Source: an uncultured Candidatus Saccharibacteria bacterium
GTDB taxonomy: Bacteria > Patescibacteriota > Kazan-3B-28 > UBA10110
Assembly (NCBI GenBank): GCA_964424375.1
Contig: CAYRIH010000001.1
Location: 19,577-70,355 of the forward strand
Reading direction: 5' to 3'
Length of the DNA stretch: 50,779 nt
Positions 31,001 through 46,360 of this stretch are shown here, one piece after another (position 1 is the first letter of the stretch; each line of letters begins with the position of its first letter). Under the pieces are notes generated by a model that saw nothing but the letters and a program-made list of their open reading frames with translations, searched no databases and was not told the DNA's origin. The position numbers were made by a program, and so were the translations under genes.

Positions 31001-31354
31001 TTTTTGAATCAACTTAATGAAAAATTTCACTTGCTCATAAAACTCTTTAGTATCAAAATTTTCTGTATTTAGAGATTTCTTTACAGATTCAATAAATTTA
31101 TAAGTTTTTTCCTCGTCTGATAGTTGTTCGTTCTCGGAAAATTCAATCAACCCAAAATTAGAACGATCAATATTTAACCCCACCAAAACTTTAGTGATAA
31201 TTTTTGGGTTTGATTTTAATCCTTTATAAAGCTCTTTGATTCCAGAAAAATAAAAAAATCCGACAAGAAATTTTAATTCTTCGCTTTTTTTAATAAGTTC
31301 AAGCAAGCGCTCTTTTAAATCACCTGTCTCGTTGTTTGTTATAAAATTAGGCAT
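28019..31354 (-). CDS. SNF2/SF2 helicase with N-terminal phospholipase-D (HKD) nuclease domain
   Basis: The HKD-like motif is NHAKLYLF...ITGSSNLTKAGL. Helicase motif I is VVGLGKTI, motif II is IIDEVHWFRN, and motif III is LLTATPFNN. Motifs V and VI are SEGFNLNRAGMVINYD and QRLGRINR. Confidence 0.85.
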   Translation of the reverse strand: MPNFITNNETGDLKERLLELIKKSEELKFLVGFFYFSGIKELYKGLKSNPKIITKVLVGLNIDRSNFGLIEFSENEQLSDEEKTYKFIESVKKSLNTENFDTKEFYEQVKFFIKLIQKDKLIIRKTYEPNHAKLYLFKLEQSQVGRKNLFITGSSNLTKAGLCTQNEFNVEIGDYGFDDAEKYFDDLWDEAVKITEYDDTKKKLVEVIEKETLIKDISPFEAFCLVLKTYLDSFKQGEISDSLIKTLEENGYTPYRYQLDAVGQALTIMEKDKGVIIADVVGLGKTIIACAVAKQLKKRGVIICPPGIKGDPRKKDSGWNKYKEQFGLYDWEVWSRGDLDKLNDFIAKTQDIEIVIIDEVHWFRNQDTKDYELLKNICRDKQVVLLTATPFNNRPGDILSLLKLFITPKKSSITLESNLVDQFKGFKGVFDRLGYIKKYRNSPDGMKKNKAQNYYKALFEEDKIDLKKVAQRARYLAKQIRNVIEPVTIRRNRLDLQNNPDYKNEVKELSEVANPQEWFFELSKEQSDFYTEILENYFGDPDEGSRFQGAIYRPFEYEVGAKKISEEKLTEKENFQFVQQRNLFDFMRRLLVKRFESSFGSFEQSIKNFKKITENSQKFINKTGEYILDRALLEKIYELDADEIEKYLLEYEEKINKGEYPKNHKRYKLDSFTLKDQFIADIQSDLELFDEILAKLSKLDLVKNDPKTICLIEHLKKEYAKKPNNGEPKRKIIIFTEYVDTVHYLEKALEKHYGDKMLVVAGNLSGSKIDQINKNFDASYKDQNNDFMLLLSSDKISEGFNLNRAGMVINYDIPWNPVRVIQRLGRINRISKKVFNKLYIVNFFPTEQGAQLVQSREIAANKMFLIHTALGEDSKIFDIDEEPTPAGLFNRVQQNPDEKEKESFYTKALKEFLKIKKRNPELIESLENYPPRIKVAKKYRNNELLVFFKKGRLYISGVKTDAEKIEPYQTTFEDVFDKIVCSSDEKSLNWNTGQFWEAYHAIQEFKDYRLGPNSEQSLEMKALNNLDFLIKNTKEELMPSKGFLRTLKEDILSYGTLADYTLRRIGNFKENLIKDILELRNELGEDYLIKEKNRQKDHKKEIIIAIENKKL

Positions 31355-31386
31355 ATTTTAGTTATTAAATAACTAATAATACCCTG

Positions 31387-31457
31387 ATTATACCCTATTC
31401 GGATATTCAGGGCTCTGAAAAAGCATTATTTCTAAACGGCTCACCCATGAGCCGTTT
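31387..31457. repeat. degenerate copy of the island intergenic module (GGGTATAAT box plus AAACGGCTCA..TGAGCCGTTT hairpin)
   Basis: Reads attataccc ... ttcagggctctgaaaaagcattatttctaaacggctcacccatgagccgttt. Confidence 0.5.
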
Positions 31458-31639
31458 AAATTTTTGTCCTAACAAGCTTTCTTGTGAAAAGAAGCTGTTG
31501 AACAAAACCAAACAACGACCACACATCGCTGTCTGACATTTCTTCTATATGTTTCTGTATATCCGAGCTAAGATTCATGGCCGCATTATAGCAGCCCGAT
31601 AGTTATTCAAACAAAAAAGACACTCCGACATCTAGGGCG

Positions 31640-33535
31640 TTACACTAAAGACACATATCTTTTCAGCTCATTTATGTTGTTTGGTTTAGATTGCGCAGTA
31701 TAATCTAACTTTTTACAAACATCCATAATCTTTACAATAAATCTATCAAACTCCACCGTAGTCATCGAGATGTTCCCATCTGCATCTTTAATGCTTGTTT
31801 GCCATACAGAGCCGATATCAAGTGGCGGCTGAGGTCTGTGGCCACTAACATTAAAGATTTTATGATCTTGTTTTGTAATCCAACCAGCTCCAACTTCTGC
31901 TACAGCCCCCCATGAAGTAGCCATCTCATTACTGGTGATATAAAGTACTAATATTTTTTTATCAGAATAACTATCGACAAAAAAATCTCTTAAATAATCA
32001 AAAACACCCGTGACGGCTTCAGGAATTCGTGCTCCCTCATTATCACAATTAGTATAAATAATGTCTTCGTCTAAAAAACCATTAAACGAAAGCATCTTAT
32101 AAACAATGTCTGCCAACGGTTTATCCGCTAAAGTGTGACTGATAAGTATTTGTTTTTTCTGTGCGTCCACTTTTGTCTTCAAGCCAAGAAGAGGAAGTGC
32201 GGCATTCATTTCACTTTTGACAATTTTCTCAATATTTTCAATTTTTTTCTGTCCAATCAATTTTACAATTTTTCCAGCTGCAATTTGAGAAGCGACATTT
32301 CTATATTTATCCACTCTCTTTCTCAATTCCTCTTCATCATGTTTTTGACGTTCTTGTTTTCCCTCATCCCGAATCTTCTTAAGGTGATCAGCATAAATCT
32401 CTCGCATAGCCACAATACGTGGGAGTAAACTATTCCTAACGTGTCCAACAACAAATTGATACCTTGGATCTTCAGTCTTATAACCCTGCCGGTTACTTAA
32501 AGCCATATCAGGTAGTTCTGTTTCTTCAAAAAGATCAACATGGAGCTGACCCACTATATAAACCTCTGGAAGTCTATTTTTACCCACAAGAGGGATAATA
32601 TTATATTCACCAAGCTTGCCATTAGAAAGCAATGAAATAAAGTTATCCGGGAAATCGCCAGGATTTTTCTTTCTATCCCGAGTTGTTCTGTAAGCGCCTA
32701 TCCAACCTTTAATCTCCAAATTATATGGTTTTTCTTCTCCCTGTTTGTTTTTAAGAATTAATGAGGTAGTAATGGGCATCTCTGTCTTCAAAAGTTTCTC
32801 CTCGATATTTCCTTTTTTTGGTAATAGAGAATCAAAATGAACAGCAAGATGTTTATAATCCTCCCCTAAAGTTATTAAAGCACCTAGTCCTTGAACCATT
32901 TCTTTGTCAAATGAATCCACCGTGATCTCCGCGGCATCGGTGATGATATGAATTTTAAACTTTTCGTTTACGAGAGGAAAAATTTTTAAAAGATTTTTCT
33001 TAATTGCAGCAACAGTCTTATGCATTCCATATTGGGGATTTGTCATTACTATTGAGGTGCCTTTAGCAGAAACTCGTTCAAATTTTATAGCTTCGTCACT
33101 TAAAGGTTTTAATTGATGGTCTTTCCCAACATGACGAGATAAAACAAATCCAGATTTTTCTCCATTCTTTACAGTTATCACCAAAACATTCTCTGAAACT
33201 GCAAGAGCGGCTAGTTTGCCTATTCCCTTTCTACCAATTTTTCTACGACGCCCGTCTTCGGTGTAAGAGTCTTTTTCTGTAATACGAGTTTCAACCGCAA
33301 CATTTAAATATTTTTTTATATCCCCTGTTTGATATGACATTCCAGATCCATCATCTTCAACAATTATTTTATTCTTTTTCTGAATTATATAAACATTGGA
33401 CGCATTGGCATCATATGAGTTAGCTATAAGTTCTGCCAAAACAAAATAAATGTTTGTATACAAACTTGGTCCTAATAATTCTAAAATTCTTGGATTAATG
33501 TTGATTTTGTATTCGCGATCACTCGGTTTATTCAT
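31640..33535 (-). CDS. GHKL (HATPase_c_3/MORC-like) ATPase fused to a C-terminal TIR-like domain
   Basis: The N box is ELIANSYDA, the G1 box is EDDGSGMS and the G2 box is GRKGIGKLA. The last ~170 aa read ILISHTLADKPLADIVYKMLSFNGF...ILVLYITSNEMATSWGAVAEVGAGW, a TIR/DUF1863-like pattern. The start is set at the ATG that overlaps the dcm stop (ATGA at 33532-33535); the track ORF starts at 33619. Confidence 0.7.
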   Translation of the reverse strand: MNKPSDREYKININPRILELLGPSLYTNIYFVLAELIANSYDANASNVYIIQKKNKIIVEDDGSGMSYQTGDIKKYLNVAVETRITEKDSYTEDGRRRKIGRKGIGKLAALAVSENVLVITVKNGEKSGFVLSRHVGKDHQLKPLSDEAIKFERVSAKGTSIVMTNPQYGMHKTVAAIKKNLLKIFPLVNEKFKIHIITDAAEITVDSFDKEMVQGLGALITLGEDYKHLAVHFDSLLPKKGNIEEKLLKTEMPITTSLILKNKQGEEKPYNLEIKGWIGAYRTTRDRKKNPGDFPDNFISLLSNGKLGEYNIIPLVGKNRLPEVYIVGQLHVDLFEETELPDMALSNRQGYKTEDPRYQFVVGHVRNSLLPRIVAMREIYADHLKKIRDEGKQERQKHDEEELRKRVDKYRNVASQIAAGKIVKLIGQKKIENIEKIVKSEMNAALPLLGLKTKVDAQKKQILISHTLADKPLADIVYKMLSFNGFLDEDIIYTNCDNEGARIPEAVTGVFDYLRDFFVDSYSDKKILVLYITSNEMATSWGAVAEVGAGWITKQDHKIFNVSGHRPQPPLDIGSVWQTSIKDADGNISMTTVEFDRFIVKIMDVCKKLDYTAQSKPNNINELKRYVSLV

Positions 33536-34572
33536 AGGACGTTCATTACATGTTCTATAATAGTTTTCCCAATAACTTGACCTAATACAGGTGGCACCGC
33601 ATTCCCTATATGCCGACAAAGTTGTGTCATTGGCAAATCTCCAAATTCGTATGAAATCGGGAATGTCTGTAATAATGCGCCCTCTCTCAACGAGATTGCA
33701 CGATCTTGCTCGGGATGTCCAAATCGTCCAGAACCATAACTAGCAAACTGTGTCGTAATTGTAGGTGATACATTATCCCAACTCATACGCCCATATACAG
33801 AAGTATATGTTTGTCCACTATCTTTTTGATAACATGCAGGCAATATTTTTTTGGCCCAATCTTTCCATGATCCACCTGGTTTTGATTGCTTAATACGTTT
33901 TAAATTGATTGGAATCAAACTTTTTGCTTGATGCATTTTGTCTTCTTCATGCCTCTGCCCAGCTTTTAGACTTGGAAGTAGTTTTATGGTATCGCCTACC
34001 GTTACATAATTCTCTTTTGAGTGTGTTGTTTCTGGGACTTTAATATTCCCAAGTTTTGAAGCAAGTAAGATGAGTCTACTTCTGTTCTGTGGCACTCCAT
34101 AATCTGGAGCATAAACAACATCAAAATCAACTTTATATTTCATCTTTTTCAGTTGTGTCACAAAGTTCTTAAAAACATTAGTTTTAATTACTCCTCGAAC
34201 ATTCTCCATTGAAACCACTTCTGGTTTGATAATCTGAATTGCACGCACAAAATGATCTAGGAGGTTCCATCTCTCATCTTTTTCGTTATTGTGCAGTTTA
34301 TGTGTATGTGCCGAAAATGGTTGACACGGAGCACAACCGACAAGAACTTTAACGCCTGATTTCGAATATATATTTTTTAACTCCCTAAAATCATATGTTG
34401 AAACATCTGTCAGTATAAACTTGGCATTATTGTTTTTTTCATATGTGACAGCACATGATTTATCATTATCAAGACCAGCTAGAACATGAATACCCGCTTT
34501 TCTAAGCCCATAAGTCAGCCCACCAATTCCACTAAATAAGTCAATTGCCTCAATTTTTAATTTTTTTTTCAT
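33532..34572 (-). CDS. dcm: DNA (cytosine-5)-methyltransferase
   Basis: Motif I is DLFSGIGG, motif IV is GCAPCQPFS, motif VI is ENVRG, motif VIII is QNRSRL and motif X is GNAVPP. Confidence 0.93.
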   Translation of the reverse strand: MKKKLKIEAIDLFSGIGGLTYGLRKAGIHVLAGLDNDKSCAVTYEKNNNAKFILTDVSTYDFRELKNIYSKSGVKVLVGCAPCQPFSAHTHKLHNNEKDERWNLLDHFVRAIQIIKPEVVSMENVRGVIKTNVFKNFVTQLKKMKYKVDFDVVYAPDYGVPQNRSRLILLASKLGNIKVPETTHSKENYVTVGDTIKLLPSLKAGQRHEEDKMHQAKSLIPINLKRIKQSKPGGSWKDWAKKILPACYQKDSGQTYTSVYGRMSWDNVSPTITTQFASYGSGRFGHPEQDRAISLREGALLQTFPISYEFGDLPMTQLCRHIGNAVPPVLGQVIGKTIIEHVMNVL

Positions 34573-34681
34573 AAATCTATTTTACACAAACATCTCCTGC
34601 ATTATACCTTTTTTCCATTGCTTGGCTTGGGTGATTTGTTGTTGTTTTGATTTTATTAAATCATCGGGCAATAATACCTCA

Positions 34682-34758
34682 ATTATACCCTAAATTAAAA
34701 ACTAACTTTCAGAGCTATTTTTATCCTGTTTATTCAACGGCTCATCCATGAGCCGTTG
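34682..34758. repeat. island intergenic module, copy E1
   Basis: Reads attataccctaaattaaaaactaactttcagagctatttttatcctgtttattcaacggctcatccatgagccgttg. Confidence 0.85.
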
Positions 34759-34868
34759 AAACTTTTATCTTAATTTATACAAAAATCAAAAGTAAGCTGT
34801 AAAAACGCGGTCGTGTTTTTATAACTCATCCTAGAACTGTCTTTATCTTATTTATTGTTATCTATCTA

Positions 34869-35324
34869 CTATTTACACTGAAAATTATTGGTTATATAAA
34901 CAGCTACATATTGCTTCAATTCATCGAAAGAAGCACTCTTGTTCCTTGTTTTGTCGCTGACATAATATGCAATATCTTTTAACTTGAAACCCTCACTGGG
35001 AACCACATACTCATAACCATTTAGCTCCATAAAATATGCTAAAACCATAAAAGCCAGCCTTTTGTTGCCATTACTAAAAAGATGTCTTTCAATAATTGTC
35101 GTGAATAAATAAGCAGCTTTATCGAAAATAGTTGGATAATATTCATCATTTTTAATGAAATCTAAAAATGGGGTCATATTACCCTTATCCTCCTTGCGAT
35201 AATCAGGAAGAGGTTCATTATCAGAATCTACATCCAAGGTGACCTCTACCAATCTAAAAATAATGAAATGAACATCCTTCTCGGAAATATATTTAATTTC
35301 TTGAGAGTTCAGAAAGCTCGTCAT
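34869..35324 (-). CDS. doc: Doc (death-on-curing) family Fic-fold toxin
   Basis: Doc signature HLFSNGNKRLAF (HxFx[DN]GNKR). Confidence 0.85.
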   Translation of the reverse strand: MTSFLNSQEIKYISEKDVHFIIFRLVEVTLDVDSDNEPLPDYRKEDKGNMTPFLDFIKNDEYYPTIFDKAAYLFTTIIERHLFSNGNKRLAFMVLAYFMELNGYEYVVPSEGFKLKDIAYYVSDKTRNKSASFDELKQYVAVYITNNFQCK

Positions 35325-35490
35325 TATACCGACTATATGTTTTATCTACAAATTTACTAACAGCTCTGCTCTTTTGAGGATTATTTTTTACGGATTTCAC
35401 AACATCTCTAGATACATAATGATACGCATCAGTTTTTTTTCTGCGTGAATTAAAATTAAACAAGTTTCCTATAATCTTTCGAATGCTCAT
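35293..35490 (-). CDS. small basic protein, putative cognate antitoxin of Doc
   Basis: 65 aa, immediately upstream of doc and overlapping it by 32 nt. No recognisable Phd/YefM motif. Confidence 0.4.
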   Translation of the reverse strand: MSIRKIIGNLFNFNSRRKKTDAYHYVSRDVVKSVKNNPQKSRAVSKFVDKTYSRYNDELSELSRN

Positions 35491-35614
35491 ATCTAAATAA
35501 TATCATATTTACATTAAAAAACAATATAAACCCACACAACATTACCTATTCCCAGAGCCACTTTATCTATAAATAAGCTGTAAAACTTTATATTAAAACT
35601 TTTTTCATATTTAA

Positions 35615-35698
35615 ATTATACCCTAAATCCCTGGCCACAAACGTCCTACGGGCAGGCAAAAACTAACTTTCAGAGCTATTTTTATCCTATTTCTTCAA
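35615..35698. repeat. island intergenic module, copy E2 (carries a 29-nt GC-rich insertion; core overlaps the stop of the peptidase gene)
   Basis: Reads attataccctaaat[ccctggccacaaacgtcctacgggcaggc]aaaaactaactttcagagctatttttatcctatttcttcaa. Confidence 0.85.
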
Positions 35699-36311
35699 CA
35701 TCCAGAAACTTTATACAATCATTTTCTATCCAAACTGCTTGAGTGTCTTTTATGAAGAAAAGTGGCTCTAAATCTTTAGGCATATGTTCGACAACTTTTT
35801 TATTTTCCTCTACAAAATCAGCATTATCACAATGTGGCATAATACCAAAATTAATAATTCCCAACCCAGCATGATTAGATATCTTTTCTATATGGTCAGC
35901 TTCCTCTTCATCATATGAAAATGGTTTTATGCTTTTAGAAACAATAATCGACCCAGCGCTTGTACCTGTGTAGATAATAGATTCTGCCTGTATTGCTTCT
36001 TTGATAACTTCATCAAAACCACCTGTTTTAAGCAACGACATTAGATAATAAACACTACCACCACACACATGTAAAATATCATTCTCTGAAATTAGTTTTT
36101 TGAGTTCATTAGAATCAATCTTGCGTAAATCAATTTCAGTGAGCTGATATCCTTGTTTCCTAAAAGCATTTCTATCCCAATCTACAAAATGCTTATCATC
36201 ATGCGAATCTGCCGCATTAGTTATAAATAGAACTCTTTTACCTACATTTGGCAAAAGAGCCTTAAGCAAAGGAAGTGTATTATTTATAGCTGATGCAAGA
36301 AAAAGTTTCAT
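35682..36311 (-). CDS. peptidase E-like (S51 family) protein
   Basis: GTSAGSII nucleophile elbow, LHVCGGSVYYLM and GIMPHCD motifs. TATAAT ends 6 nt before the ATG, so the mRNA is probably leaderless. Confidence 0.7.
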   Translation of the reverse strand: MKLFLASAINNTLPLLKALLPNVGKRVLFITNAADSHDDKHFVDWDRNAFRKQGYQLTEIDLRKIDSNELKKLISENDILHVCGGSVYYLMSLLKTGGFDEVIKEAIQAESIIYTGTSAGSIIVSKSIKPFSYDEEEADHIEKISNHAGLGIINFGIMPHCDNADFVEENKKVVEHMPKDLEPLFFIKDTQAVWIENDCIKFLDVEEIG

Positions 36312-36317
36312 AAATCA

Positions 36318-36392
36318 ATTATACCCTAAATTAAAAACTAACTTTCAGAGCTATTTTTATCCTATTTATTCAATGGCTCACATGAGCTGTTG
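36318..36392. repeat. island intergenic module, copy E3
   Basis: Reads attataccctaaattaaaaactaactttcagagctatttttatcctatttattcaatggctcacatgagctgttg. Confidence 0.85.
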
Positions 36393-36414
36393 AAGAATAA
36401 GGTATAATTTAGGT

Positions 36415-37269
36415 ATGGAGATAAAAGTAAAGGCAGTAGCAGATAAACGCATATTCTGTTTATATGCCGCTTTAAATGCTACAGTTTATGATAAAGAAAA
36501 TGCCGAGGCAATGCATTCGCTTCGCTTAAAAGTACGAGATTATTTAAATAGTAGAGATTTATTATTAGGAGAGTTAAAACAACTTTTTGCCAAGTACCCA
36601 GAAGAATTTTATTATCGTTTTCGTCATTGGATATTAAGTCATGGCAATCCGCCGGAGTTTAAAGAAATTAATAATTTTTGGAAATGTAATAGTTTAAGAG
36701 ATTTAGATAGATTTAAAGAATTGTTGCGAGACTTCTGGAATCAAAGCCAAATCGAGAAATTATGGCAGGAATTTAGTATTGAATATAAATCTGCAATTAA
36801 AGAAGCACAAAAAAATGGGGAGATTGCGGTTAAACAAGTAACAGATTATTTAAATATAGAAAATTTGAATATAGAGAAGTTGATAATTATTCCGAATTTG
36901 TTAGATAGTTACAACATTGGGTTAGGACCTACAGTTAATAAAACTGCCTATGCTATTTTGGGTCCTTCACAAAATGGGTTTTCTGTGCCTCGCATCGAAC
37001 ATGAATTATTGCATTCGATTATTAATCCATTAACAGAAGATTTTAATAAACAAAAAAGGTCAAAACTGCGAGAATATATTATTAGAGCAATAGTGTTGAG
37101 GCTAAATAAAGATAATCAAAGATACTACAAAGAATCAAAACAAAAATTAATTGATAAAGAATACATTTATATTGACGATTTTTTAAATAATTTAGAGATA
37201 TTTGAAAAGAGTAAACAACCATTTAACAAGTATTTTAAACACTGGTTATTGAATATCCAGCTTGATTAA
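36415..37269 (+). CDS. HExxH-motif protein (putative zinc metallopeptidase) heading the RiPP operon
   Basis: 284 aa with IEHELLHSI as the only HExxH motif. Same strand as the radical-SAM gene and 70 nt upstream of it. Confidence 0.55.
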   Translation: MEIKVKAVADKRIFCLYAALNATVYDKENAEAMHSLRLKVRDYLNSRDLLLGELKQLFAKYPEEFYYRFRHWILSHGNPPEFKEINNFWKCNSLRDLDRFKELLRDFWNQSQIEKLWQEFSIEYKSAIKEAQKNGEIAVKQVTDYLNIENLNIEKLIIIPNLLDSYNIGLGPTVNKTAYAILGPSQNGFSVPRIEHELLHSIINPLTEDFNKQKRSKLREYIIRAIVLRLNKDNQRYYKESKQKLIDKEYIYIDDFLNNLEIFEKSKQPFNKYFKHWLLNIQLD

Positions 37270-37344
37270 TTAGCTCTGGTAGCGTATAATATTGTTAGTA
37301 CCTTAAAATCATTTAATCTCTATAGAAGGAGGTGACCTTTGAAC

Positions 37345-38631
37345 ATGGAGATAAAAACTGAGTTGATACGGGACACTATTGTCGTTCATGGTCCTGATGC
37401 TGTTTATTTGTATGCACAGTCTACACAACAGGTAGCCCGAGTGCGTGAATTGACCATGACTATTAAAAATAATCTAACTAATAAGGGTTTTTTTAATATG
37501 GTTCCCAGGTCAATGCGGTATCGCCCTCCAAGGAAGTGGAAAAGTTTAATGTTGCTTTTGGCTAAAGATTGTCCACTTAAATGCAGATATTGTTATGCCC
37601 ATGGAGGTAGCAACAATGAGATGATGAGTCCAGAGGTCGCCAATAGAGCAGTTGCTGTTTATCTTGCTACTCAACCAAAGAACCCTAGGGTAATTTTGTT
37701 TGGTGGTGGTGAACCAGCAATGAACATTCCAGCCATTAAGCATATTGTTAATAAGTATGGTACGAGTATCAAGTGGCACATGACAACTTCTGGGGTGATG
37801 TCTCAATCGTTTTTGCGATGGTTGATAGAACATGAAGTGGGAATGACTATTTCTATTGATGGACCACCAGACATTCAAAATGATTTGCGTCCCCTGCGTG
37901 GAGGTGGTGCTTCAGCACCGATTGTTGAGCAGACCATTAGAACACTGGCAATGGAGTCCAATAGGAGAGTTAGTCTAAGGGCAACCATTACTCGTAGTAC
38001 ACTCTGGGAGATGAGTCGGATTTTAGACTATTTCAGTGAGTTGGGAGCAAAAACAGTTCATATTGAGAGGGTTTATTCTCTTGGACGAGCGTTAAAGGAT
38101 AATTCAGATAACTTAAGCCCATTAAATTTATCTGAGATGGTAGAGATGGCAACGCTTGGATTGGACTGGGCAAAGACAACTGGAAAACGTCTCAAAATAG
38201 GTGGTTTGACATATTTATTAAACCCTCGCATTTCCCATTATTGTGGGGCAATGTCAGGACAAAGTATGGTTGTTAACCATTTAGGACAACTTACGAGTTG
38301 TAGTGAAGTTGTTGATGATCAGACAAAAGAGTGGTCACTTTTCCAATTAGGCTATATTGACAAGCATAGCCAAGTACATTTGGATGAACAAAAACTTGTT
38401 CATTCTCAGCATCGCGTGGTTACTAACATGGAAGCATGTAAATCATGCTTTGCTAGATACTTATGTAGAGGAGGTTGTGCTCATAAGGCATGGGCAGTGA
38501 CAGGTGATATTTTTACACCAGATCCTCAGCACTGTCAATTCATTCGTGCAATTATTCCTATTTTGATTCAGCGCATGGTCGATCAGCATTATCCTCAGTT
38601 GAGGAAATCTAAAGAAAGGATGGTGCAATAA
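37345..38631 (+). CDS. radical SAM enzyme with C-terminal SPASM domain (peptide-modifying maturase type)
   Basis: CPLKCRYCYA CxxxCxxC cluster motif, GGGEP, and SPASM cysteines CGAMSG...C...CKSCFARYLCRGGCAHKAW. The GGAGGTG Shine-Dalgarno lies 10 nt before ATG 37345; the track uses TTG 37339. Confidence 0.85.
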   Translation: MEIKTELIRDTIVVHGPDAVYLYAQSTQQVARVRELTMTIKNNLTNKGFFNMVPRSMRYRPPRKWKSLMLLLAKDCPLKCRYCYAHGGSNNEMMSPEVANRAVAVYLATQPKNPRVILFGGGEPAMNIPAIKHIVNKYGTSIKWHMTTSGVMSQSFLRWLIEHEVGMTISIDGPPDIQNDLRPLRGGGASAPIVEQTIRTLAMESNRRVSLRATITRSTLWEMSRILDYFSELGAKTVHIERVYSLGRALKDNSDNLSPLNLSEMVEMATLGLDWAKTTGKRLKIGGLTYLLNPRISHYCGAMSGQSMVVNHLGQLTSCSEVVDDQTKEWSLFQLGYIDKHSQVHLDEQKLVHSQHRVVTNMEACKSCFARYLCRGGCAHKAWAVTGDIFTPDPQHCQFIRAIIPILIQRMVDQHYPQLRKSKERMVQ

Positions 38632-38632
38632 C

Positions 38633-38752
38633 ATGCCAAATAGTGATATCTTTGTAAGTAATGCTGAGTTGTCTGAATTGTTCGCCTTAGACAACACCTG
38701 TCCTACGCACTATGAATGTGGCGACGACTGCACCTGCGATGATGATCCATAA
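38633..38752 (+). CDS. 39-aa Cys/Asp-rich putative RiPP precursor peptide (MPNSDIFVSNAELSELFALDNTCPTHYECGDDCTCDDDP)
   Basis: Not in the ORF track because it is too short. The ATG lies 1 nt after the radical-SAM stop, and a strong terminator follows at 38788-38817. The layout is a leader-like N-terminal half plus a core with 4 Cys and 6 Asp/Glu. Confidence 0.6.
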   Translation: MPNSDIFVSNAELSELFALDNTCPTHYECGDDCTCDDDP

Positions 38753-38787
38753 ACAAGGAGTTTAAAGTGACATCATTGCAATGATGT

Positions 38788-38817
38788 GCCCCAACTGAAA
38801 TATGTTGGGGCTTTTTG
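38788..38817 (+). terminator. rho-independent terminator of the RiPP operon
   Basis: GCCCCAAC-tgaaatat-GTTGGGGC followed by TTTTTG. Confidence 0.75.
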
Positions 38818-38867
38818 TATCATAATTATTATTTGAATATATCTGAAATGCTTTATAAATTCGCGAC

Positions 38868-38927
38868 CGTATAATTTCAGAGCTGTTTTCACCCCACTTA
38901 TTCAAAAAAGCTCCTGACGGAGCTTTA
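38868..38927. repeat. degenerate island intergenic module (E6) merged with the terminator of the 38964..39524 gene
   Basis: Reads cgtataatttcagagctgttttcaccccacttattcaaaaaagctcctgacggagcttt. On the minus strand AAAGCTCCGTCAGGAGCTTTTTT is a terminator. Confidence 0.45.
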
Positions 38928-38963
38928 ATATAGAATTTCACTGTGAATAAAAACAAAGATGTT

Positions 38964-39524
38964 TTAGTGCGATGCTATGAGCGAGATTGTTGCCTGACCT
39001 TCATCAGTAAAACGTAGGTTATCCGTAATAATGCTGTTGCCAGAAACTTTAGCAACTCGACGGATAAAATTTTCGAGTACCCCCAGCCGAGCCACTACCA
39101 AGAGCATCACTGCTTCGTCCTCCATCTCCGAGAGACCGGAAAAGGAAAAAACAAACCTATACCCAGATATTCCACAACCAACAGCTCCGCCCCATCTCTG
39201 TTTTTCAGGGTTTCGAGATTCCCAGCTTAACAAAAGATCACTTGGATGTGCTCGATCTGTGTCCATATCCATAAGCATAGAGGTACGTTTTGCCTTCTCT
39301 ACACAAAATTCAGAGTATTTACCCCCCTTACCATTCATGATTTCCCCAACTAAAGTGGGAGGAATCAAGAAAGTATTGGTTGCATGATCGAGAAGACAAA
39401 AATATCCTCCCAACTTTTTCGGCACAGTGAGGGCGAGCACCTCCTCGATCAATTCTACGACTATCGCCAAAACTGCAGAAACCAACCTTGGGAATTGTCC
39501 CGCAACAGAAAAGTCTAAACTCAT
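38964..39524 (-). CDS. hypothetical protein, possibly GlcG/HbpS-like (DUF336)
   Basis: 186 aa and GC-richer than the surroundings. GGAVGCGISG...FSGLSEMEDEAVMLLV loosely resembles the DUF336 G-rich loop plus DE motif. A TTGACA-17-TATACT promoter is at 39565-39600 on the minus strand. Confidence 0.4.
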   Translation of the reverse strand: MSLDFSVAGQFPRLVSAVLAIVVELIEEVLALTVPKKLGGYFCLLDHATNTFLIPPTLVGEIMNGKGGKYSEFCVEKAKRTSMLMDMDTDRAHPSDLLLSWESRNPEKQRWGGAVGCGISGYRFVFSFSGLSEMEDEAVMLLVVARLGVLENFIRRVAKVSGNSIITDNLRFTDEGQATISLIASH

Positions 39525-39601
39525 TCTTATTCACCTCCAAATCAAGGAGCATCAGAGCCCCTGTTGATACTTAAAGTATATTCTAACTACACTTTAGTGT
39601 C

Positions 39602-39685
39602 AAAAAACTACCTTTCAGAGCTATTTTTATCTTATTTATTCAACAAAGAATTTTTGTATAAACTACTGGATTATGAGAAAATAAT
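39602..39685. repeat. island intergenic module, long form, copy E4
   Basis: Reads aaaaaactacctttcagagctatttttatcttatttattcaacaaagaatttttgtataaactactggattatgagaaaat. It matches 42161-42242 at most positions. Confidence 0.8.
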
Positions 39686-39806
39686 TATAGCCAATCCGAT
39701 GAAGGTCGCCCACCAGGGCGACAAGGCTACATGGGTAACTGTCACCTGCCAGGGTGACACTAACCACTTGGGCATGGTACCGGTACTCACCATGCCCCTT
39801 TTTTTA
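39668..39806 (+). ncRNA. candidate small RNA R1 (promoter TGTATAAA inside E4; two similar 18-nt hairpins; strong terminator)
   Basis: Contains GTCGCCCaccaGGGCGAC and GTCACCtgccagGGTGAC, then GGGCATGGTaccggtactcACCATGCCC followed by a T7 run. No conserved ORF (ATG AGA AAA TAA only). Confidence 0.4.
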
Positions 39807-39845
39807 TGTCTACCTGCCCAAGCAGGCAACGCCGTTGAGAATATA

Positions 39846-39883
39846 AAATAAAACCATGCGGTTAAAGTTTAGGCATGGTTTTG
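39846..39883 (-). terminator. rho-independent terminator after 39895..40269
   Basis: AAAACCATGC-loop-GCATGGTTTT followed by ATTTT on the minus strand. Confidence 0.6.
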
Positions 39884-39894
39884 TTCGGTGAGGT

Positions 39895-40269
39895 TCAAAT
39901 TTCGAATTCGGTGAAACCGGCAGGCATGAGTCTTGTCCAAACATATGCTTTCCGGTTAGATCCATTGAAGACCAATTCGTTGGTTTTGCACATGATCTGC
40001 ATGGCCTTAGCAATGTTGTCGTTCCTTTCCTGAAGATTCACTCGCCGGGACGGATAATCATTAGCGTCGATTTGGATGATTGCCGCATAGCCCCTAGTTT
40101 CATCCATTTCCCCGAATGGGCGGAATTCCACCTCGACATCCTCAGGAACAAGGGGTCCATTTTCATCTGTACAACTTAAAGCGTCAGCCACGATTTTGGC
40201 AATAGGCGTTACGAGAGGCTTATTGAACCGCACATGGCGAGCATCGTATTTGAATATAACCTGTGGCAT
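39895..40269 (-). CDS. hypothetical protein
   Basis: 124 aa and GC-richer than the surroundings. Preceded by the duplicated TTGACT-17-TATATT promoter/5'UTR module and a GGAG Shine-Dalgarno. Confidence 0.55.
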   Translation of the reverse strand: MPQVIFKYDARHVRFNKPLVTPIAKIVADALSCTDENGPLVPEDVEVEFRPFGEMDETRGYAAIIQIDANDYPSRRVNLQERNDNIAKAMQIMCKTNELVFNGSNRKAYVWTRLMPAGFTEFEI

Positions 40270-40279
40270 CAATGTTCAT

Positions 40280-40335
40280 CTCCTTTTCAAGGTTTTTGGT
40301 ATTTGAATATACCAATTCTAATCTGATTAGTCAAC
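40280..40335 (-). promoter_or_regulatory. duplicated promoter plus 5'UTR module, copy 1
   Basis: Minus strand reads GTTGACTAATCAGATTAGAATTGGTATATTCAAATACCAAAAACCTTGAAAAGGAG. 54 of 56 nt are identical to 42080-42135. Confidence 0.7.
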
Positions 40336-40339
40336 GGCT

Positions 40340-40357
40340 TTCTGCTGTATAGCAGAA
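40340..40357. repeat. third, shorter copy of the TTCTGCTGTA(C/T)AGCAGAA palindrome
   Basis: Reads ttctgctgtatagcagaa. Confidence 0.7.
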
Positions 40358-40387
40358 CAGGCATATTCGCCGTTTATTTATAGTATT

Positions 40388-40420
40388 AAAAAAGCCCGTA
40401 TTAAAATTGATTAACGGGCT
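40388..40420 (-). terminator. rho-independent terminator after the lipoprotein gene
   Basis: AGCCCGTTAA-loop-TACGGGCT followed by TTTTTT on the minus strand. Confidence 0.6.
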
Positions 40421-40442
40421 AAGTGGCTCTTGGTAATAGTTG

Positions 40443-40799
40443 TCATTCTTGTTGGACGCGGTACCAAACTTCCGCAGAAATCAGATATCCCGAGTCATAT
40501 ATTGTTCTTACGGTAATAATGTCATATTCCCCACTGTTTACAATTCTTTCCAATTCCGCTCTAATTTCTGGCTCTCTTAAGTCATAGCCTCCGCCCAATA
40601 GACCCCGATTACCTGTGATAAAAATAACTCTAACTTCAGTGCCAGATCCTTCTTCCGCGAGAATTGGGTCAGAAGTTTCTTCTGCATTTGCATCAAATGC
40701 TGTAGTTTCTACTCGAGTTTGAGACTCACATCCTGCAAAAGACAACATGCCCAAAATTGCGATAAGAATAACTGCTATTACTACGACAAGGTTTCGCAT
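40443..40799 (-). CDS. putative lipoprotein
   Basis: MRNLVVVIAVILIAILGMLSFAGC is a signal peptide with a lipobox. The ATG lies 8 nt after AAAGGAGG; the track ORF starts at 40835. Confidence 0.6.
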   Translation of the reverse strand: MRNLVVVIAVILIAILGMLSFAGCESQTRVETTAFDANAEETSDPILAEEGSGTEVRVIFITGNRGLLGGGYDLREPEIRAELERIVNSGEYDIITVRTIYDSGYLISAEVWYRVQQE

Positions 40800-40847
40800 G
40801 TCTACAGCCTCCTTTTCTGGGATTTGTAATGTCAAAGATACTTATTT

Positions 40848-40882
40848 AATATCAAAAAATACGCTTCTAGTCAAGCTTTTTA
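40848..40882 (-). promoter_or_regulatory. duplicated promoter module (TTGACT-17-TATTAA), copy 1
   Basis: Plus strand reads aatatcaaaaaatacgcttctagtcaagcttttta. It differs at 1 position from 41548-41582. Confidence 0.6.
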
Positions 40883-40984
40883 TTACTTATTAACTTATTA
40901 ATATTTTATTTAGATAAAAAGAAAAGGCGAGAGTAAACTCATCGCCAATTTTTTAGAGAATAATACTACACAAGGAAATAAAAT

Positions 40985-41479
40985 CTAACCTCTTCTAATT
41001 CCCTTTAAATACTCATTCAATGCAGCAAAGAATTCTGCATTTGTGGTTACAGTCATTTTACTCGGCTGTTCTTTTAATTCGACTATTTGTAATGGTTTTA
41101 CAGCTAATTCAGTATCACTTTTCCCATCCCAATTTTTGGTTACAGGAAAACCAGCCTTTTCCAATCCCGGATCCCAAGTAGAATCTACAATGACCCACTT
41201 GCCATCTATCTGAATTTTTATGGCGAGATGCTGTCCTAAGTGGTCCTCTTTTTTGTCTATAATCACCCTCGGTATTGGCAAACTTCTCCAATCAAAATTT
41301 ATCAATAAGTACTTCACCTGAATACCGAGTTTTTTATATTCCCTCCCTAGAAAGCCGTTCTTTTCCAAACAGCAGCCTTTATTCATCTTCAATAACTTAT
41401 CCGGATCCCTTTCCCTCAAACAATAGTAAGGAATCCGCTGGGCTTTTTCAAAAAGGCTAATAATTTCTCTTATATTCAT
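40985..41479 (-). CDS. transglutaminase-like cysteine-protease-fold protein
   Basis: Candidate Cys-His-Asp triad in context: KGCCLEKNGFL ... HLAIKIQIDGKWVIVDSTWD. Confidence 0.65.
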   Translation of the reverse strand: MNIREIISLFEKAQRIPYYCLRERDPDKLLKMNKGCCLEKNGFLGREYKKLGIQVKYLLINFDWRSLPIPRVIIDKKEDHLGQHLAIKIQIDGKWVIVDSTWDPGLEKAGFPVTKNWDGKSDTELAVKPLQIVELKEQPSKMTVTTNAEFFAALNEYLKGIRRG

Positions 41480-41547
41480 TTTTATCTCCTTTCAATGTGC
41501 CAAGCGGTTTGGATTTAGCTAAAAAGGCATTCACTTTTATAACAATA

Positions 41548-41582
41548 AAATATCAAAAAATACGCTTCTGGTCAAGCTTTTT
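41548..41582 (-). promoter_or_regulatory. duplicated promoter module, copy 2
   Basis: Plus strand reads aatatcaaaaaatacgcttctggtcaagcttttta. Confidence 0.6.
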
Positions 41583-41589
41583 ACATAAT

Positions 41590-41611
41590 AAAAAACCCGC
41601 AAAAAGCGGGT
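41590..41611 (-). terminator. rho-independent terminator after 41645..42070
   Basis: AACCCGCtttttGCGGGTT flanked by A and T runs. Confidence 0.65.
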
Positions 41612-41644
41612 TAATTGGTCGAGGGGTCGGAGTCAGAAATGGTA

Positions 41645-42070
41645 TTATTCTTCTGAATCCGGGGGGACAAGCACCCATTCAATACTTAAACGATCGGCAT
41701 CCCAGTCAGCCAAAACCACGTTCTTTATGGATTGGTCTTCTGTGCGAGATACTTCATTCAAATAAGGTACAACAAGATATAAACAACCTTTATGTACCCC
41801 CTCATTCTTGGGTCTCGGCTGATTATCAATCCTCTTCACCAGTCGTTCGCTGGACACTTGAGGAAGATCTAACCGGTTCTGAAGTATGTGAATTGTCAAT
41901 ATTCCAGATGCCTCGTCAGCCATATCCAGTATGATGAATGGATATGCGTTGCACTGCTTGATAACTTCTCTACAGAAGCGAACTTTCTCCTCTTGGGTAG
42001 AGGAGGCTTTGATAATATCCACCGGAAAATCTGAAAGATCAGCCGGTGGTCTGCCTGTCATTATCAACAT
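41645..42070 (-). CDS. hypothetical protein
   Basis: 141 aa. The start is chosen at the ATG (MLIMTGRPP) following the shared 5'UTR and AAAAGGAGAG; the track ORF starts at 42115. Confidence 0.5.
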   Translation of the reverse strand: MLIMTGRPPADLSDFPVDIIKASSTQEEKVRFCREVIKQCNAYPFIILDMADEASGILTIHILQNRLDLPQVSSERLVKRIDNQPRPKNEGVHKGCLYLVVPYLNEVSRTEDQSIKNVVLADWDADRLSIEWVLVPPDSEE

Positions 42071-42079
42071 GGGTACGCT

Positions 42080-42135
42080 CTCCTTTTCAAGGTTTTTGAT
42101 ATCTGAATATACCAATTCTAATCTGATTAGTCAAC
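42080..42135 (-). promoter_or_regulatory. duplicated promoter plus 5'UTR module, copy 2
   Basis: See 40280-40335. Confidence 0.7.
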
Positions 42136-42160
42136 AACTCCCTAACTCCTGACCAGGTAA

Positions 42161-42242
42161 ACAAAACTGACTTTCAGGGTTATTTTTATCCTATTTCTTA
42201 AACAAAGAATTTTTGTATAAACTGTTGGATTATGAGAAAATT
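42161..42242. repeat. island intergenic module, long form, copy E5
   Basis: Reads acaaaactgactttcagggttatttttatcctatttcttaaacaaagaatttttgtataaactgttggattatgagaaaatt. Confidence 0.8.
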
Positions 42243-42338
42243 GGCATGCCAGCAGGTAAAGGTGAGATGTTTGGGTCAAAGGGTGCTCTGGCACCCCCCT
42301 CCCTGTGGGCATGGGTTCTAACCATGCCCACTTTTCTT
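42228..42338 (+). ncRNA. candidate small RNA R2 (promoter inside E5, terminator GTGGGCATGG..CCATGCCCAC)
   Basis: Has the same promoter context as R1, a different body, and a terminator hairpin of the same family followed by a T-run. Confidence 0.35.
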
Positions 42339-42469
42339 GTGTAATTCTCATAATCATGAGAGAATTATTATGCTTATCAGGGAAAGGGGCTCTAATTTGC
42401 TCCAAAGAGGGGTTACAAATAGTAACCCTCCCGACTTGTGGGCATGGTCCCCGACCATGCCCTTTTTTT
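42339..42469 (+). ncRNA. candidate small RNA R3 or read-through extension of R2
   Basis: Contains the GGGTTACaaatagGTAACCC hairpin, then GGGCATGGTccccgACCATGCCC followed by a T7 run. The following tatgtata matches the sequence after the R1 terminator. Confidence 0.3.
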
Positions 42470-42480
42470 ATGTATAGATT

Positions 42481-42578
42481 CCCTGGCCGGGCAGGCTGGA
42501 GTCGCTTCGCTTCCCTGCCTACCGGCAGGCAGGCCAGAATGACCCTCCGTCGCCTTTCAGGCTATGGAGGGCTGTCGC
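42481..42578. repeat. GC-rich palindromic mini-element cluster (CCCTGGCC..GGGCAGGC type)
   Basis: Reads ccctggccgggcaggc ... ccctgcctaccggcaggcagg .... The same terminal motifs occur at 35629-35657 and, on the other strand, at 12379-12421. Confidence 0.6.
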
Positions 42579-42626
42579 AATAGGATGGATTCCAAATACT
42601 AAATTCTATATTCCAGATACTAAATA

Positions 42627-43496
42627 CTAGCGGTAGTACACGCGATCCTCTATCCTCAAATCGACATACTGTGTAGGCAACTCTTTCATAGACCTTAAAA
42701 CCTTAACTAAATTATTAATTTGAGTATCGATACTTCTGGTGGTATCAAAAATAATTGTCCAGCCTTCGGAAGTTACCACCTCAATCTCAAAAGTTGTTTC
42801 GGGCACTAGAACTCTTCTGGCTGATACATTGGTTCGGCGAGGCAGATTGGACACGGCTGAGGTAACAAATTCTATAAAATCGGTTGTCACAATCTTTTGA
42901 TTCAAATTAATAGGCACATTCTTTAAATCTTCTATTACTGTCAAAGGGCTATCTTCTGGCGCCACATCATAAACCACTCCAGCTCGGTTAACCATAAAAC
43001 GCTCATTGTTAGTCTGCCAGATTATGGTTGTTTCATGTTCACTAATCGTAACTACCAGTTTTTTCTTAAAAATCAGTTTTTTAAATCTAGCCTCTTTAAT
43101 CTGTAATATAGACAATATTTGCTGGCTGGCCTGATTTTCATTGAACAAAAAAGCATTAACTGGCTCAAATCCATCTTGAAACATAGTCTGTTCTATATCA
43201 GTATCTGGCACTAAATGATTCCCCTGTATTTCCAGAGTAGTCAAAACAAAGGCTTGGGATCCCAATAGCAAATAAACTAATAAAGCCAAGACAACTCCCA
43301 GACCAACTTTAATCATATAATCTGATATTTCTGGCAAAGGTCTAGTTTTAAGTTTGGGCCGCCATACTAATCTTCTAAGATGTCTCTTGGGTTGGACAAC
43401 ATCTGGTTTGGTTGTATAAAACAATACCTTGGGCCCAGAAGTTCGCGGCTTTTTTTGCTTCAACAAAAATGAAAAAGAGAAACCCCTTTTAACCAT
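42627..43496 (-). CDS. ftsQ: cell division protein FtsQ-like (POTRA domain)
   Basis: TM anchor followed by the POTRA-like LTTLEIQGNHLV. It lies directly downstream of murC, as in dcw clusters. Confidence 0.7.
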   Translation of the reverse strand: MVKRGFSFSFLLKQKKPRTSGPKVLFYTTKPDVVQPKRHLRRLVWRPKLKTRPLPEISDYMIKVGLGVVLALLVYLLLGSQAFVLTTLEIQGNHLVPDTDIEQTMFQDGFEPVNAFLFNENQASQQILSILQIKEARFKKLIFKKKLVVTISEHETTIIWQTNNERFMVNRAGVVYDVAPEDSPLTVIEDLKNVPINLNQKIVTTDFIEFVTSAVSNLPRRTNVSARRVLVPETTFEIEVVTSEGWTIIFDTTRSIDTQINNLVKVLRSMKELPTQYVDLRIEDRVYYR

Positions 43497-43500
43497 CTAA

Positions 43501-44898
43501 TCATCCCCCAGTTTGATTCTTAAAAACCCCTAAGAAGGCATGGATCCACTCACTGTTTTGACCAGCCCCTAAAGATAAAACTACTTCATCTGATTTTAAA
43601 ACCTTATTAAGATAATCAGTCACGGCATCAAAACTTGGCATATTTTTGGCATTACCGCTGATTTGATTAATTTCATCAACCAATTTCTGAGAATTAATTA
43701 ATTTTTGTTCCTCTGGAGTATCTCTAACCGGTAAAATCGGAGCTATTAAAACTTCATCTGCATCTTTAAAACTATTAGCAAACTCATCTAATAAAAATCT
43801 GGTTCGACTAAACTGATGAGGCTGAAAAACTACTCTAATCTTTCTATTGCCAAAATAATCTCGGGTAGATTTAAGCATTGCCTTAATTTCAGTCGGGTGA
43901 TGAGCATAATCATCTACAAAAGCCACTCCTTTATAATCCCCTAGCATTTCAAATCTGCGCTTAGCCCCTTTAAATTGAACCAAAGCTTGATGAATATCTG
44001 CATCTTTGATTTTCAAATGTCTAGCCACGGCAATGGCGGACAAAGCATCCAAAACTAAATGTCGGCCAGGAAAATTAATATATGTTTCAAAGTTGCCTAC
44101 CTTAAAACTCATTTTTGGGTTAGATATTTTTAGTTCAGTAGCTCTAACATCATTATGCGGACCAAATCCAAAAGTAATAACTTTAGCTTTAGCCCGCGGC
44201 AAAATATCTTTGATATTTTCATCATCTCCATTAGCTATGATTAATCCATCAACTGGGACTAATTCCAAAAACTGGGCAAAGGCTTCTTTAATTTCTTGAA
44301 TGTCTTCATAATAATCCAAATGATCCGCTTCTATATTAGTCAGCACAGCAATTTTTGGTTTCATGTCTAAAAATGACCTATCATATTCACAAGCTTCTAC
44401 CACCATATATGGGCCTTTGCCCAAAAATCCACCGCCCTGCAGGCTTTTTACTTCTGCGCCTATCAGCGCAGTAGGATCCAGCCCCCCAATCTGAAGCATT
44501 AGAGTAATTAAAGTAGTAGTTGTAGTTTTGCCATGAGTTCCAGATACCGCAATACCAATCTTATCCTGCATCAACTTGCCTATAAACTCTGATCTTTTAT
44601 TTATCTCTACACCCAACTGACGCGCTCTGACCACTTCCGGATGATCATCATTGGGATAATATCGCTTAATGGCAGAAGTATAAATTAGTTCATCAATATC
44701 TTCCGGAACATTTTCCGGCTTATGCTGACCTATAGTAACCACGATGCCTTTGGCTTCTAATCGGCCTCTTTCGGGAAAATCGATTAGATTAGACCCAGTA
44801 ATCTTATGTTCCATACCCAAAAGTACATCAGCTAAAGCTTGCATGCCAATACCACCAATACCTACCATAAAATAGTGCTTCGAAGAAACTTTTTTCAC
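43501..44898 (-). CDS. murC: UDP-N-acetylmuramate--L-alanine ligase
   Basis: GIGGIGMQALA, SGTHGKTTTT and DDYAHHP motifs. Confidence 0.93.
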   Translation of the reverse strand: MKKVSSKHYFMVGIGGIGMQALADVLLGMEHKITGSNLIDFPERGRLEAKGIVVTIGQHKPENVPEDIDELIYTSAIKRYYPNDDHPEVVRARQLGVEINKRSEFIGKLMQDKIGIAVSGTHGKTTTTTLITLMLQIGGLDPTALIGAEVKSLQGGGFLGKGPYMVVEACEYDRSFLDMKPKIAVLTNIEADHLDYYEDIQEIKEAFAQFLELVPVDGLIIANGDDENIKDILPRAKAKVITFGFGPHNDVRATELKISNPKMSFKVGNFETYINFPGRHLVLDALSAIAVARHLKIKDADIHQALVQFKGAKRRFEMLGDYKGVAFVDDYAHHPTEIKAMLKSTRDYFGNRKIRVVFQPHQFSRTRFLLDEFANSFKDADEVLIAPILPVRDTPEEQKLINSQKLVDEINQISGNAKNMPSFDAVTDYLNKVLKSDEVVLSLGAGQNSEWIHAFLGVFKNQTGG

Positions 44899-46359: not shown

Positions 46360-46360
46360 A

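Follow-up and report, generated by a model that had tools for sequence, protein, structure and literature searches.

A repeated intergenic junction at the borders of strain-variable gene cassettes in an uncultured Candidatus Saccharibacteria bacterium

A stretch of 50,779 nucleotides from the genome of an uncultured Candidatus Saccharibacteria bacterium (contig CAYRIH010000001.1, positions 19,577 to 70,355; here called the window) harbours a short intergenic module that is repeated between unrelated accessory genes. We propose that this module is a lineage-specific junction made of separable blocks, that it joins self-expressed gene cassettes, and that these cassettes are exchanged by homologous recombination; the probability of this reading is in our estimate about 0.5. 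The decisive evidence for cassette exchange at the junctions is the comparison of strains, since three strains displayed the same junctions with different cassettes between them. The host is a sediment bacterium of the candidate phyla radiation (CPR)/Patescibacteria type with a very small genome (~0.65 Mb), and the genome assembly searched here comprised 654 kb in 31 contigs with 94% completeness and 36% G+C.

Copies of the core and their genomic distribution

A scan of the window with the 41-nt core AAAAACTAACTTTCAGAGCTATTTTTATCCTATTTATTCAA identified copies at positions 34697, 35658, 36333 and 39603, each with 0-2 mismatches, where the chance expectation from 100 shuffles was 0. A fifth copy at 42162 differed from AAAAACTAACTTTCAGAGCTATTTTTATCCTATTTATTCAA by 6 mismatches. 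Every core in the window was found on the + strand, in line with the single orientation given in the initial annotation, in which the first three positions were correct and the last two (given as 39602 and 42161) were each one base off. The same families, including both extension types, were recovered by a repeat finder (D1, D2, D14). The description of the flanks was also confirmed, with ATTATACCC on one side and either a hairpin or a long extension on the other. ATTATACCC, which reads GGGTATAAT on the minus strand, adjoins the copies at 34697 and 36333 and the variant at 31387, and adjoins the copy at 35658 past a 29-nt GC-rich insert. The hairpin-bearing copies are those at 34697, 36333 and 31387, while a 79-nt long form is common to 39603 and 42162 with 89% identity. 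Three degenerate copies had been listed in addition. That at 31406 kept both flanks but had a different centre and is better regarded as a separate variant, ~95% conserved in two other strains; that at 38875 was indeed present, but only as a weak copy (nhmmer E = 0.01); and at 12448 a hairpin and a TATAAT were found, but no core.

Since most of the cassette genes are located on the minus strand, the module is read on that strand throughout. The features of the window are the following.

23189-42618, no strand: strain-variable island with the array; flanks conserved with a sister strain, interior unrelated
31387-31458, minus: end-of-array junction variant, with a REP-like hairpin (31433-31458), a diverged centre (..TTTTTCAGAGCCCTGAATATCC..) and GGGTATAAT (31387-31395)
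34681-34760, minus: junction B, full form, separating the cassettes of the Doc toxin and of Dcm + GHKL; hairpin 34733-34760, core 34697-34737, putative promoter box AATTTAGGGTATAAT 34681-34696
35604-35698, minus: junction C, separating the S51 peptidase from the antitoxin-Doc cassette; core 35658-35698, which provides S51 with its final codons and its stop; mini-insert 35629-35657 (29 nt); putative promoter box with a relic leaderless open reading frame (ORF) of 6 codons 35604-35628
36312-36394, minus: junction D; hairpin 36369-36394, core 36333-36373, putative promoter box
38875-38910, minus: degenerate copy of the core (family D3), immediately following a terminator hairpin and located behind a 186-aa gene
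39575-39682, minus: junction E; long extension 39644-39682, core 39603-39643, no GGGTATAAT box
42106-42241, minus: junction F, the first after ftsQ; long extension 42203-42241, core 42162-42202 with 6 mismatches

The spacing between copies ranged from 675 to 3945 nt, with real genes inside. The earlier suggestion of one functional unit per interval was borne out by four intervals, but not by 36333-39603, which holds an operon for a ribosomally synthesised and post-translationally modified peptide (RiPP) on the opposite strand together with the 186-aa gene, nor by 39603-42162, which holds four self-contained genes.

In the whole assembly, a profile search returned 7 strong core copies (E <= 7e-11), of which 5 were in the window and 2 were on contig C2 (41995-42035 and 42380-42420) at a locus behind the ribonucleotide reductase (RNR) gene. 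Apart from the weak copy at 38875 the remaining matches were noise, and a second profile, built from 16 copies, returned the identical seven. All strong copies are confined to two variable loci of the 654-kb genome, and a core distributed genome-wide as a repetitive extragenic palindrome (REP) is thereby ruled out; such a description holds for the hairpin block only. When 40 relatives, 26 genomes of the order and a species-level genome collection were searched for the core, it was absent from all of them. The core was present in contigs of close strains, and loose ends in Logan contigs showed at least 2 further core contexts beyond the loci compared.

Anatomy of the junction and its predicted expression signals

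A complete junction consists of four parts. The first is the end of the upstream unit, which may be a gene end, an ordinary terminator or a REP-like hairpin. It is followed by TTGAATAAATAG, in the form (G/A)TTGAA(T/G)AAATAG, with TGA, TAA and TAG in three different frames, then by the near-invariant 29-mer GATAAAAATAGCTCTGAAAGTTAGTTTTT and, in most copies, by AATTTAGGGTATAAT with a T, four variable bases and TAT(G) behind it. The upstream end coincides with a coding end in three cases, those of unrelated ORFs with one common TAA stop, and is an ordinary G+C-rich terminator in several copies and a CGGCTCA-N-TGAGCCG hairpin in others. The S51 peptidase ORF (35682-36311, minus) stops inside the core with ..V E E I G stop, in accordance with the initial claim that the core supplies the end of this gene. 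Both this ORF and a 99-aa ORF on C2 end in ..FLDVEEIG stop, the last nine codons, (K/E)FLDVEEIG, being common to two otherwise unrelated ORFs (C2 42097-42396; S51, window 35682-35705), and a hydrolase of the sister strain ends in ..KIG stop. The S51 Pfam domain is already complete by residue 201 of 209, and its tail is therefore junction-derived and not native. From these stops we infer that the left part of the junction halts translation running in from the upstream unit.

In an alignment of 16 copies from three strains, the 20-mer GATAAAAATAGCTCTGAAAG was identical in 13 and the next 9 nt were nearly so, whereas the 13 nt to the left of GATAAAAATAGCTCTGAAAG differed in almost every copy. The right edge of homology was ragged: it was located after TTAGTTTT in copies E, F and M1, earlier in C2 42380, after GGGTAT in M3, and after TATAAT-N5-TAT in the remaining copies. 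The core alone folded no better than shuffled sequences (z = +1.9, and +0.4 for a hairpin-less copy) and had no match in Rfam even at E = 1, which ruled out a structured RNA. Lack of likeness to tRNA-Gln likewise ruled out a tRNA-derived core.

The CGGCTCA hairpin (perfect 13-bp stem, ~28 nt) is a separate block, with 13 exact-arm copies, or 18 by a looser pattern, on ten contigs. It was missing from 10 of the 16 aligned cores, and in module copies its T-run is on the + strand. The module had been interpreted as a terminator-spacer-promoter unit; the promoter fits the sequence, but the terminator lies outside the conserved unit and differs between copies. Another block is the GC-rich mini-insert GCCTGCCCG...GGCCAGGG, seen in three versions of 29-52 nt and located in four junctions at the identical position, between TTAGTTTTT and ATTTAGGG. 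Members of this family were found at 35629-35657, 12379-12421 and 42481-42578 of the window and, in contigs of the other strains, at L026 8258-8303 and 10565-10593 and at L009 440-495. Their conserved ends form imperfect terminal inverted repeats around a variable middle of 0-40 nt, and one copy interrupts a 5′ relic of tRNA-Gln. By these traits the mini-insert looks like a tiny site-specific insertion element.

Every unit was preceded by a promoter-like site, either the GGGTATAAT box or TTGACx-17-TATAxT, as judged from sequence only. In S51 (TATAAT 36318-36323 in junction D, ATG 36311) and, in two strains, in DUF5680, the ATG of the gene follows the TATAAT of GGGTATAAT at a distance of 6 nt. 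An inverted copy of the box (36398-36417, +) stands 6 nt before the ATG (36415) of the RiPP operon on the opposite strand, and the two arms, 36309-36328 and 36398-36417, are 80% complementary. Genome-wide, where an ATG stood 5-7 nt past a TATAAT, 34% of these ATGs opened ORFs that reached 80 aa or more; the share was 9-20% when scrambled hexamers with equal or larger spacings were taken as controls. Based on this enrichment, leaderless starts are plausibly used, and we infer that the right part of the junction is a -10-only promoter for a leaderless mRNA that would start at the ATG. Copies E and F lack the box, and the next sites are the best sigma-70-like ones of the region: a canonical TTGACA-17-TATACT (39603-39575) for the 186-aa gene in junction E, scoring 11/12, and TTGACT-17-TATATT (42134-42106) ~30 nt past the core in junction F.

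The module might be purely regulatory, a common promoter and operator of one regulator whose position at cassette borders is a by-product of the need for a promoter. By direct reading, a TA(G/A)CT-N5-AG(T/C)TA dyad is centred near the -35 of the GGGTATAAT promoter and, in the manner of an UP element or of bent DNA, A/T tracts recur with a phase of ~10.5 nt on the upstream side of the -10; furthermore, helix-turn-helix (HTH) genes are present at the far island edge in both strains. Yet the core is conserved also in copies without the promoter box, where the next promoter abuts it (E) or is ~30 nt off (F, M1), and ~100% identity over 29-60 nt between paralogous copies exceeds the needs of an operator. 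Inter-strain homology, moreover, starts and stops at the module, hence recombination did occur there. We consider a solely regulatory role improbable.

Within the four-gene block, two pairs of repeated blocks of 96-97% identity precede unrelated genes: 40279-40335 and 42079-42135 (TTGACT-17-TATATT), and 40848-40882 and 41549-41583 (TTGACT-17-TATTAA), each having the appearance of a promoter and leader. Blocks of the TTGACT-17-TATTAA type were also found ahead of cassettes in the sister strain and in the minor strain described below. On the + strand, the long-form module displays TTTTTGTATAAAC, an extended -10, pointing into the stretches 39683-39810 and 42242-42470. These are G+C-rich and hairpin-rich, extend over ~110-140 nt and end in GGGCATGG..CCATGCCC and a T-run, as strong terminators do; similar hairpin-rich units follow ftsQ in the sister strain (L026 4671-5755). 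The stretches behind the long-form modules are candidate small RNAs, with no Rfam match.

Cassette content in close strains

The sister strain, in which core genes are ~97% identical to those of the window strain, was represented at this island by contig L026, part of a 284-kb contig of which a 607-kb version exists. Both flanks of the island were conserved, with 96.9% identity to window 42619-47296 (truB to ftsQ) and 95% to window 22811-23188. Between them the sister had 13 kb with no gene in common with the 19.4-kb island of the window. Its island contained five cores and the end variant, all co-oriented, around single- or two-gene units in the order hydrolase / PyrF + PRTase / HhH-GPD glycosylase / 155-aa / DUF5680 / 274-aa / end variant / MmeI-like enzyme. 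The cassette at L026 6663-8162, bounded by two junctions, encodes an OMP decarboxylase and a phosphoribosyltransferase of pyrimidine synthesis, for which only a 33%-identical paralogue was found in the window's genome. Consequently, the cassettes are not solely defence genes.

Single junctions could be followed between the islands. The 97-nt variant of junction C recurs in the sister between two other cassettes (L026 10524-10620, 94.8% identity), and junction F is closest to the junction that opens the array of the sister (L026 6515-6567, 90.7%). In each of three strains it is another restriction-type gene that follows the end variant: its GGGTATAAT is located 32 nt upstream of the start (31354) of a SNF2/PLD helicase in the window, and its orthologues, with ~95% identity, stand before an HsdR-like gene (L008 1515-1605) and before the MmeI-like gene (L026 11614-11657).

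A third, minor strain was recognised in contigs L009 and L008/L023 from two assemblies and displayed a mosaic of window-strain and sister cassettes. The order was RiPP - S51 / core / 150-aa + 100-aa / junction / DUF5680 / end variant / HsdR-like helicase, with 97% identity of S51 to the window and 97% identity of DUF5680 to the sister. This variant reached a depth of ~2-3x in the sample from which the window came, relative to ~20x for the main strain, and the strains thus coexist. DUF5680 was found in three different neighbourhoods and S51 in two. The inter-strain homology of DUF5680 starts in the core and ends 6 nt past the stop codon. Cassette borders in the related strains therefore coincide with the module, and boundaries unrelated to it, the other outcome considered in the initial annotation, were not seen. 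More distant DUF5680 loci (77% and 70% identity) were ruled out as module carriers, no module being present there.

In the window strain, the RNR locus is occupied by the 99-aa ORF and an envelope operon of five genes. The sister's locus (L027) was rearranged, with two cores of a diverged subtype bounding a small membrane ORF and a His_Phos_1 gene. These two cores have derived changes in common, which points to local conversion or co-import, and the C2 junction resembles a short-homology deletion product of the sister's arrangement.

In four runs of one sample, the unitig of the Doc cassette (34698-35687) was at ~1.3x flank depth and that of 40306-42133 at ~0.75-0.95x. Such unequal depths may be noise, or may indicate that cassette content is heterogeneous within the population.

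Recombination routes

The exchange of cassettes may be depicted as follows. After uptake of DNA from a sister strain, the junction copies would serve as identity patches, and RecA-dependent recombination and gene conversion at the junctions would replace, delete and reshuffle cassettes. The same recombination would keep the junction copies homogeneous, and a dedicated recombinase would not be required. RecA, RuvB, RecR and ComEC are encoded in the genome. Crossovers at variable points are expected to give a ragged right edge; this edge, the diverged subtype at the sister's RNR locus and the deletion-like junction on C2 all fit homologous recombination or conversion, which from sequence comparison is the most likely exchange route.

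Several points weigh against this reading. The 20-mer is near-invariant beside 13 variable nt although conversion alone should homogenise both, and a sequence-specific protein may therefore be involved. Homologous recombination also leaves the first attachment of new genes, sometimes exactly at the ATG, unexplained. The identity patches are short, 40-90 nt, and with a genome 94% complete a recombinase gene could have escaped the search. For the two short contigs of the minor strain, chimeric assembly over the repeat is possible in principle; both assemblies of this strain, however, agree on its diagnostic variant junction TTAGTCTTG.

The only tyrosine recombinase detected, at C2:2313-2828, is of the XerA/XerC type, with 234.6 bits where the cut-off of the XerA model NF040815 is 220. 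No recombinase gene was found in the window, nor in or beside either array. A search for a linked recombinase, as had been suggested, thus yielded a single Xer-like gene that is not linked to the arrays. In the 94%-complete assembly no serine recombinase, Y1/HUH transposase, IS110, TnpB or Cas1 was detected, and Bridge-RNA/IS110, TnpB, Y1/RAYT and serine recombinases were rejected as agents, a weak 'resolvase' match being RuvB. GC skew was monotonic over both contigs, without a switch at either locus, and the arrays are accordingly unlikely to be at the terminus, where dif would lie.

It is conceivable, though we consider it unlikely, that the 29-mer is the site of a site-specific cassette system, recognised by the XerA/XerC-like enzyme or by one encoded in trans or in the missing 6% of the genome. 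Cassettes would then be excised as circles and reinserted at other copies, like in integrons or in integrative mobile elements exploiting Xer recombination (IMEX) and pdif modules. This would account for two points that homologous recombination leaves, namely the invariance of the 29-mer, nearly free of substitutions while its flanks vary, and the first joining of genes at the ATG. The copies are co-oriented even beside genes on the opposite strand, and C2 42380-42420 keeps the left arm and centre with a foreign right arm, like a hybrid site. By direct reading the 29-mer contains an imperfect dyad, AAAAATAGCT-CTGAA-AGTTAGTTTTT, but this dyad is a weak one that requires a 1-nt indel. The Xer-type enzyme exists and scores above the XerA cut-off, but its gene is ~40 kb from the RNR locus and far from both arrays, and the protein is far under the cut-off of the integron-integrase model (123.6 vs 265 bits). 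Judging by GC skew, neither array is likely to be at the terminus, the core has no significant fold, and the right homology edges are ragged. A circular, excised Doc cassette was also considered and rejected; the 1037-nt back-joint in Logan contigs was the C2 locus aligned on two module copies.

The module could further be a mobile element of the MITE/Correia type that inserts between genes with its promoter, the 'cassettes' being the genes between insertions. It is short, multicopy, lineage-specific and promoter-carrying, and the GC-rich mini-element does insert site-specifically into the module. However, neither terminal inverted repeats nor a target-site duplication were found, the copies are limited to two loci and no transposase was found in the genome. 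The strains, besides, differ in the genes between modules and not in the presence of modules between the same genes. We regard this explanation as very improbable.

Signs of other mobility were seen around tRNA-Gln in the window. A relic of the 3′-end of this tRNA gene (GTTCGAACTCGAGACGCTCAGCCA, 10760-10784, minus) is located 1.2 kb downstream, with a RelA/SpoT-like gene between, and the other side holds a GIY-YIG gene together with a 5′ relic of this tRNA (sites 12004-12077, minus; 12080-12320, minus; and 12325-12440). Judged by its sequence, this arrangement is a signature of repeated integration at tRNA-Gln. A second repeat family, with members of 52-107 nt and 72-90% identity that contain CTATACAAATGTTTAGG (8141-8247, 9838-9944 and 10690-10741), stands before three consecutive genes behind tRNA-Gln and may be another series of cassette junctions.

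Ultra-small CPR genomes of ~0.65 Mb have scant room for accessory genes, and their routes of gene gain and loss are little known. Here, defence and accessory genes were concentrated at two spots, with methylases, a Doc toxin, a peptidase and a RiPP cluster in the window strain and pyrimidine genes, a glycosylase and SIR2 in the sister. The units turn over completely between strains with ~3% difference in core genes, which provides a concrete model, open to testing, of how the pangenome of an uncultured lineage changes. The compact linker of ~60 nt, with its all-frame stop, putative -10-only promoter and predicted leaderless start, could serve as an expression junction. It is doubtful, though conceivable, that the arrays are a true gene-capture system unrelated to integrons, in which a ~29-bp non-palindromic site is cut and rejoined by a specific enzyme, possibly the lone XerA-like recombinase. 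Were that so, the linker would let captured genes arrive ready for expression, and a specific enzyme acting on the 29-mer would define a new cassette-capture system.

Comparison with known systems

The arrays resemble sedentary chromosomal integrons and CALINs (Vibrio VCR type) in having a co-oriented repeat between mostly single, unrelated genes, including a toxin-antitoxin pair, and in a cassette content that varies between close strains with one cassette at different positions. In integrons, intI lies beside the array, while CALINs lack it; here none was present. The attC site is an imperfect palindrome of 55-141 nt with R''-L''/L'-R' boxes and extrahelical bases, in contrast to the unfolded core. 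Integron cassettes are mostly promoterless under one Pc, whereas this repeat appears to carry promoter and start codon and the units to be self-expressed, and only 5-7 copies were present per locus. GTTGAAT/TTCAAC at the base of the hairpin recall R'/R'', but this hairpin is a short and perfect one that some copies lack and that is spread genome-wide, and without intI an attC/integron origin was rejected. The integron-like logic proposed in the initial annotation, lacking attC and integrase, is apt as a description of the pattern, and the recombination mechanism behind it is hypothetical.

In pdif modules of Acinetobacter plasmids and in IMEX, gene modules that include toxin-antitoxin pairs are bounded by short sites and exploit the Xer system of the host. 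The similarity is that the only recombinase here is of the host Xer type. The differences are the apparent lack of an 11-6-11 dif-like site, direct repeats without alternating orientation, and arrays that are probably off the terminus. A check for a dif-like 28-bp site, at the terminus or derived from it, found no skew switch at either locus and a weak dyad; the monotonic GC skew makes IMEX or dif at the terminus unlikely.

A near-identical promoter block before divergent genes is known from the upstream homology box of Borrelia erp/ospEF/elp and the 5′ cassettes of Mycoplasma vsp/vpma, where such blocks are kept homogeneous by recombination and act as its substrate. Those blocks precede related lipoprotein families, and Mycoplasma employs Xer-type inversions, unlike the unrelated genes and direct repeats described here.

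Other element types were considered as well. CTTTCAGAGCTA recalls type II CRISPR repeats, but the irregular spacing of 675-3945 nt, the real genes between copies and the lack of Cas1 ruled out a CRISPR-like repeat. A phage origin was dismissed since 11 IMG/VR matches and 2 from a contig collection covered the seed only, by chance. The terminal inverted repeats and target-site duplication of MITE and Correia elements were both missing at the module ends, where the edges are ragged. Of the palindrome dispersed genome-wide in REPs and enterobacterial bacterial interspersed mosaic elements (BIMEs), the core has neither property, being non-palindromic with 7 copies at 2 loci, and the hairpin block alone conforms. 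Literature searches returned no description of such arrays in Patescibacteria.

Neisserial mosaic elements, Correia elements, 'minimal mobile elements' and BIMEs are similar in that their junctions are mosaics of few blocks. Here the hairpin, the core, the putative promoter box and the GC-rich insert are combined in different ways and occur even in either orientation, and promoters (here predicted) and terminators are carried in both cases. The core differs from these elements by having no inverted repeats and by its confinement, within one species cluster, to two hypervariable loci instead of a genome-wide spread. The cassettes themselves recall the minimal mobile elements of Neisseria, where strain-specific genes are swapped between conserved flanks by transformation and homologous recombination.

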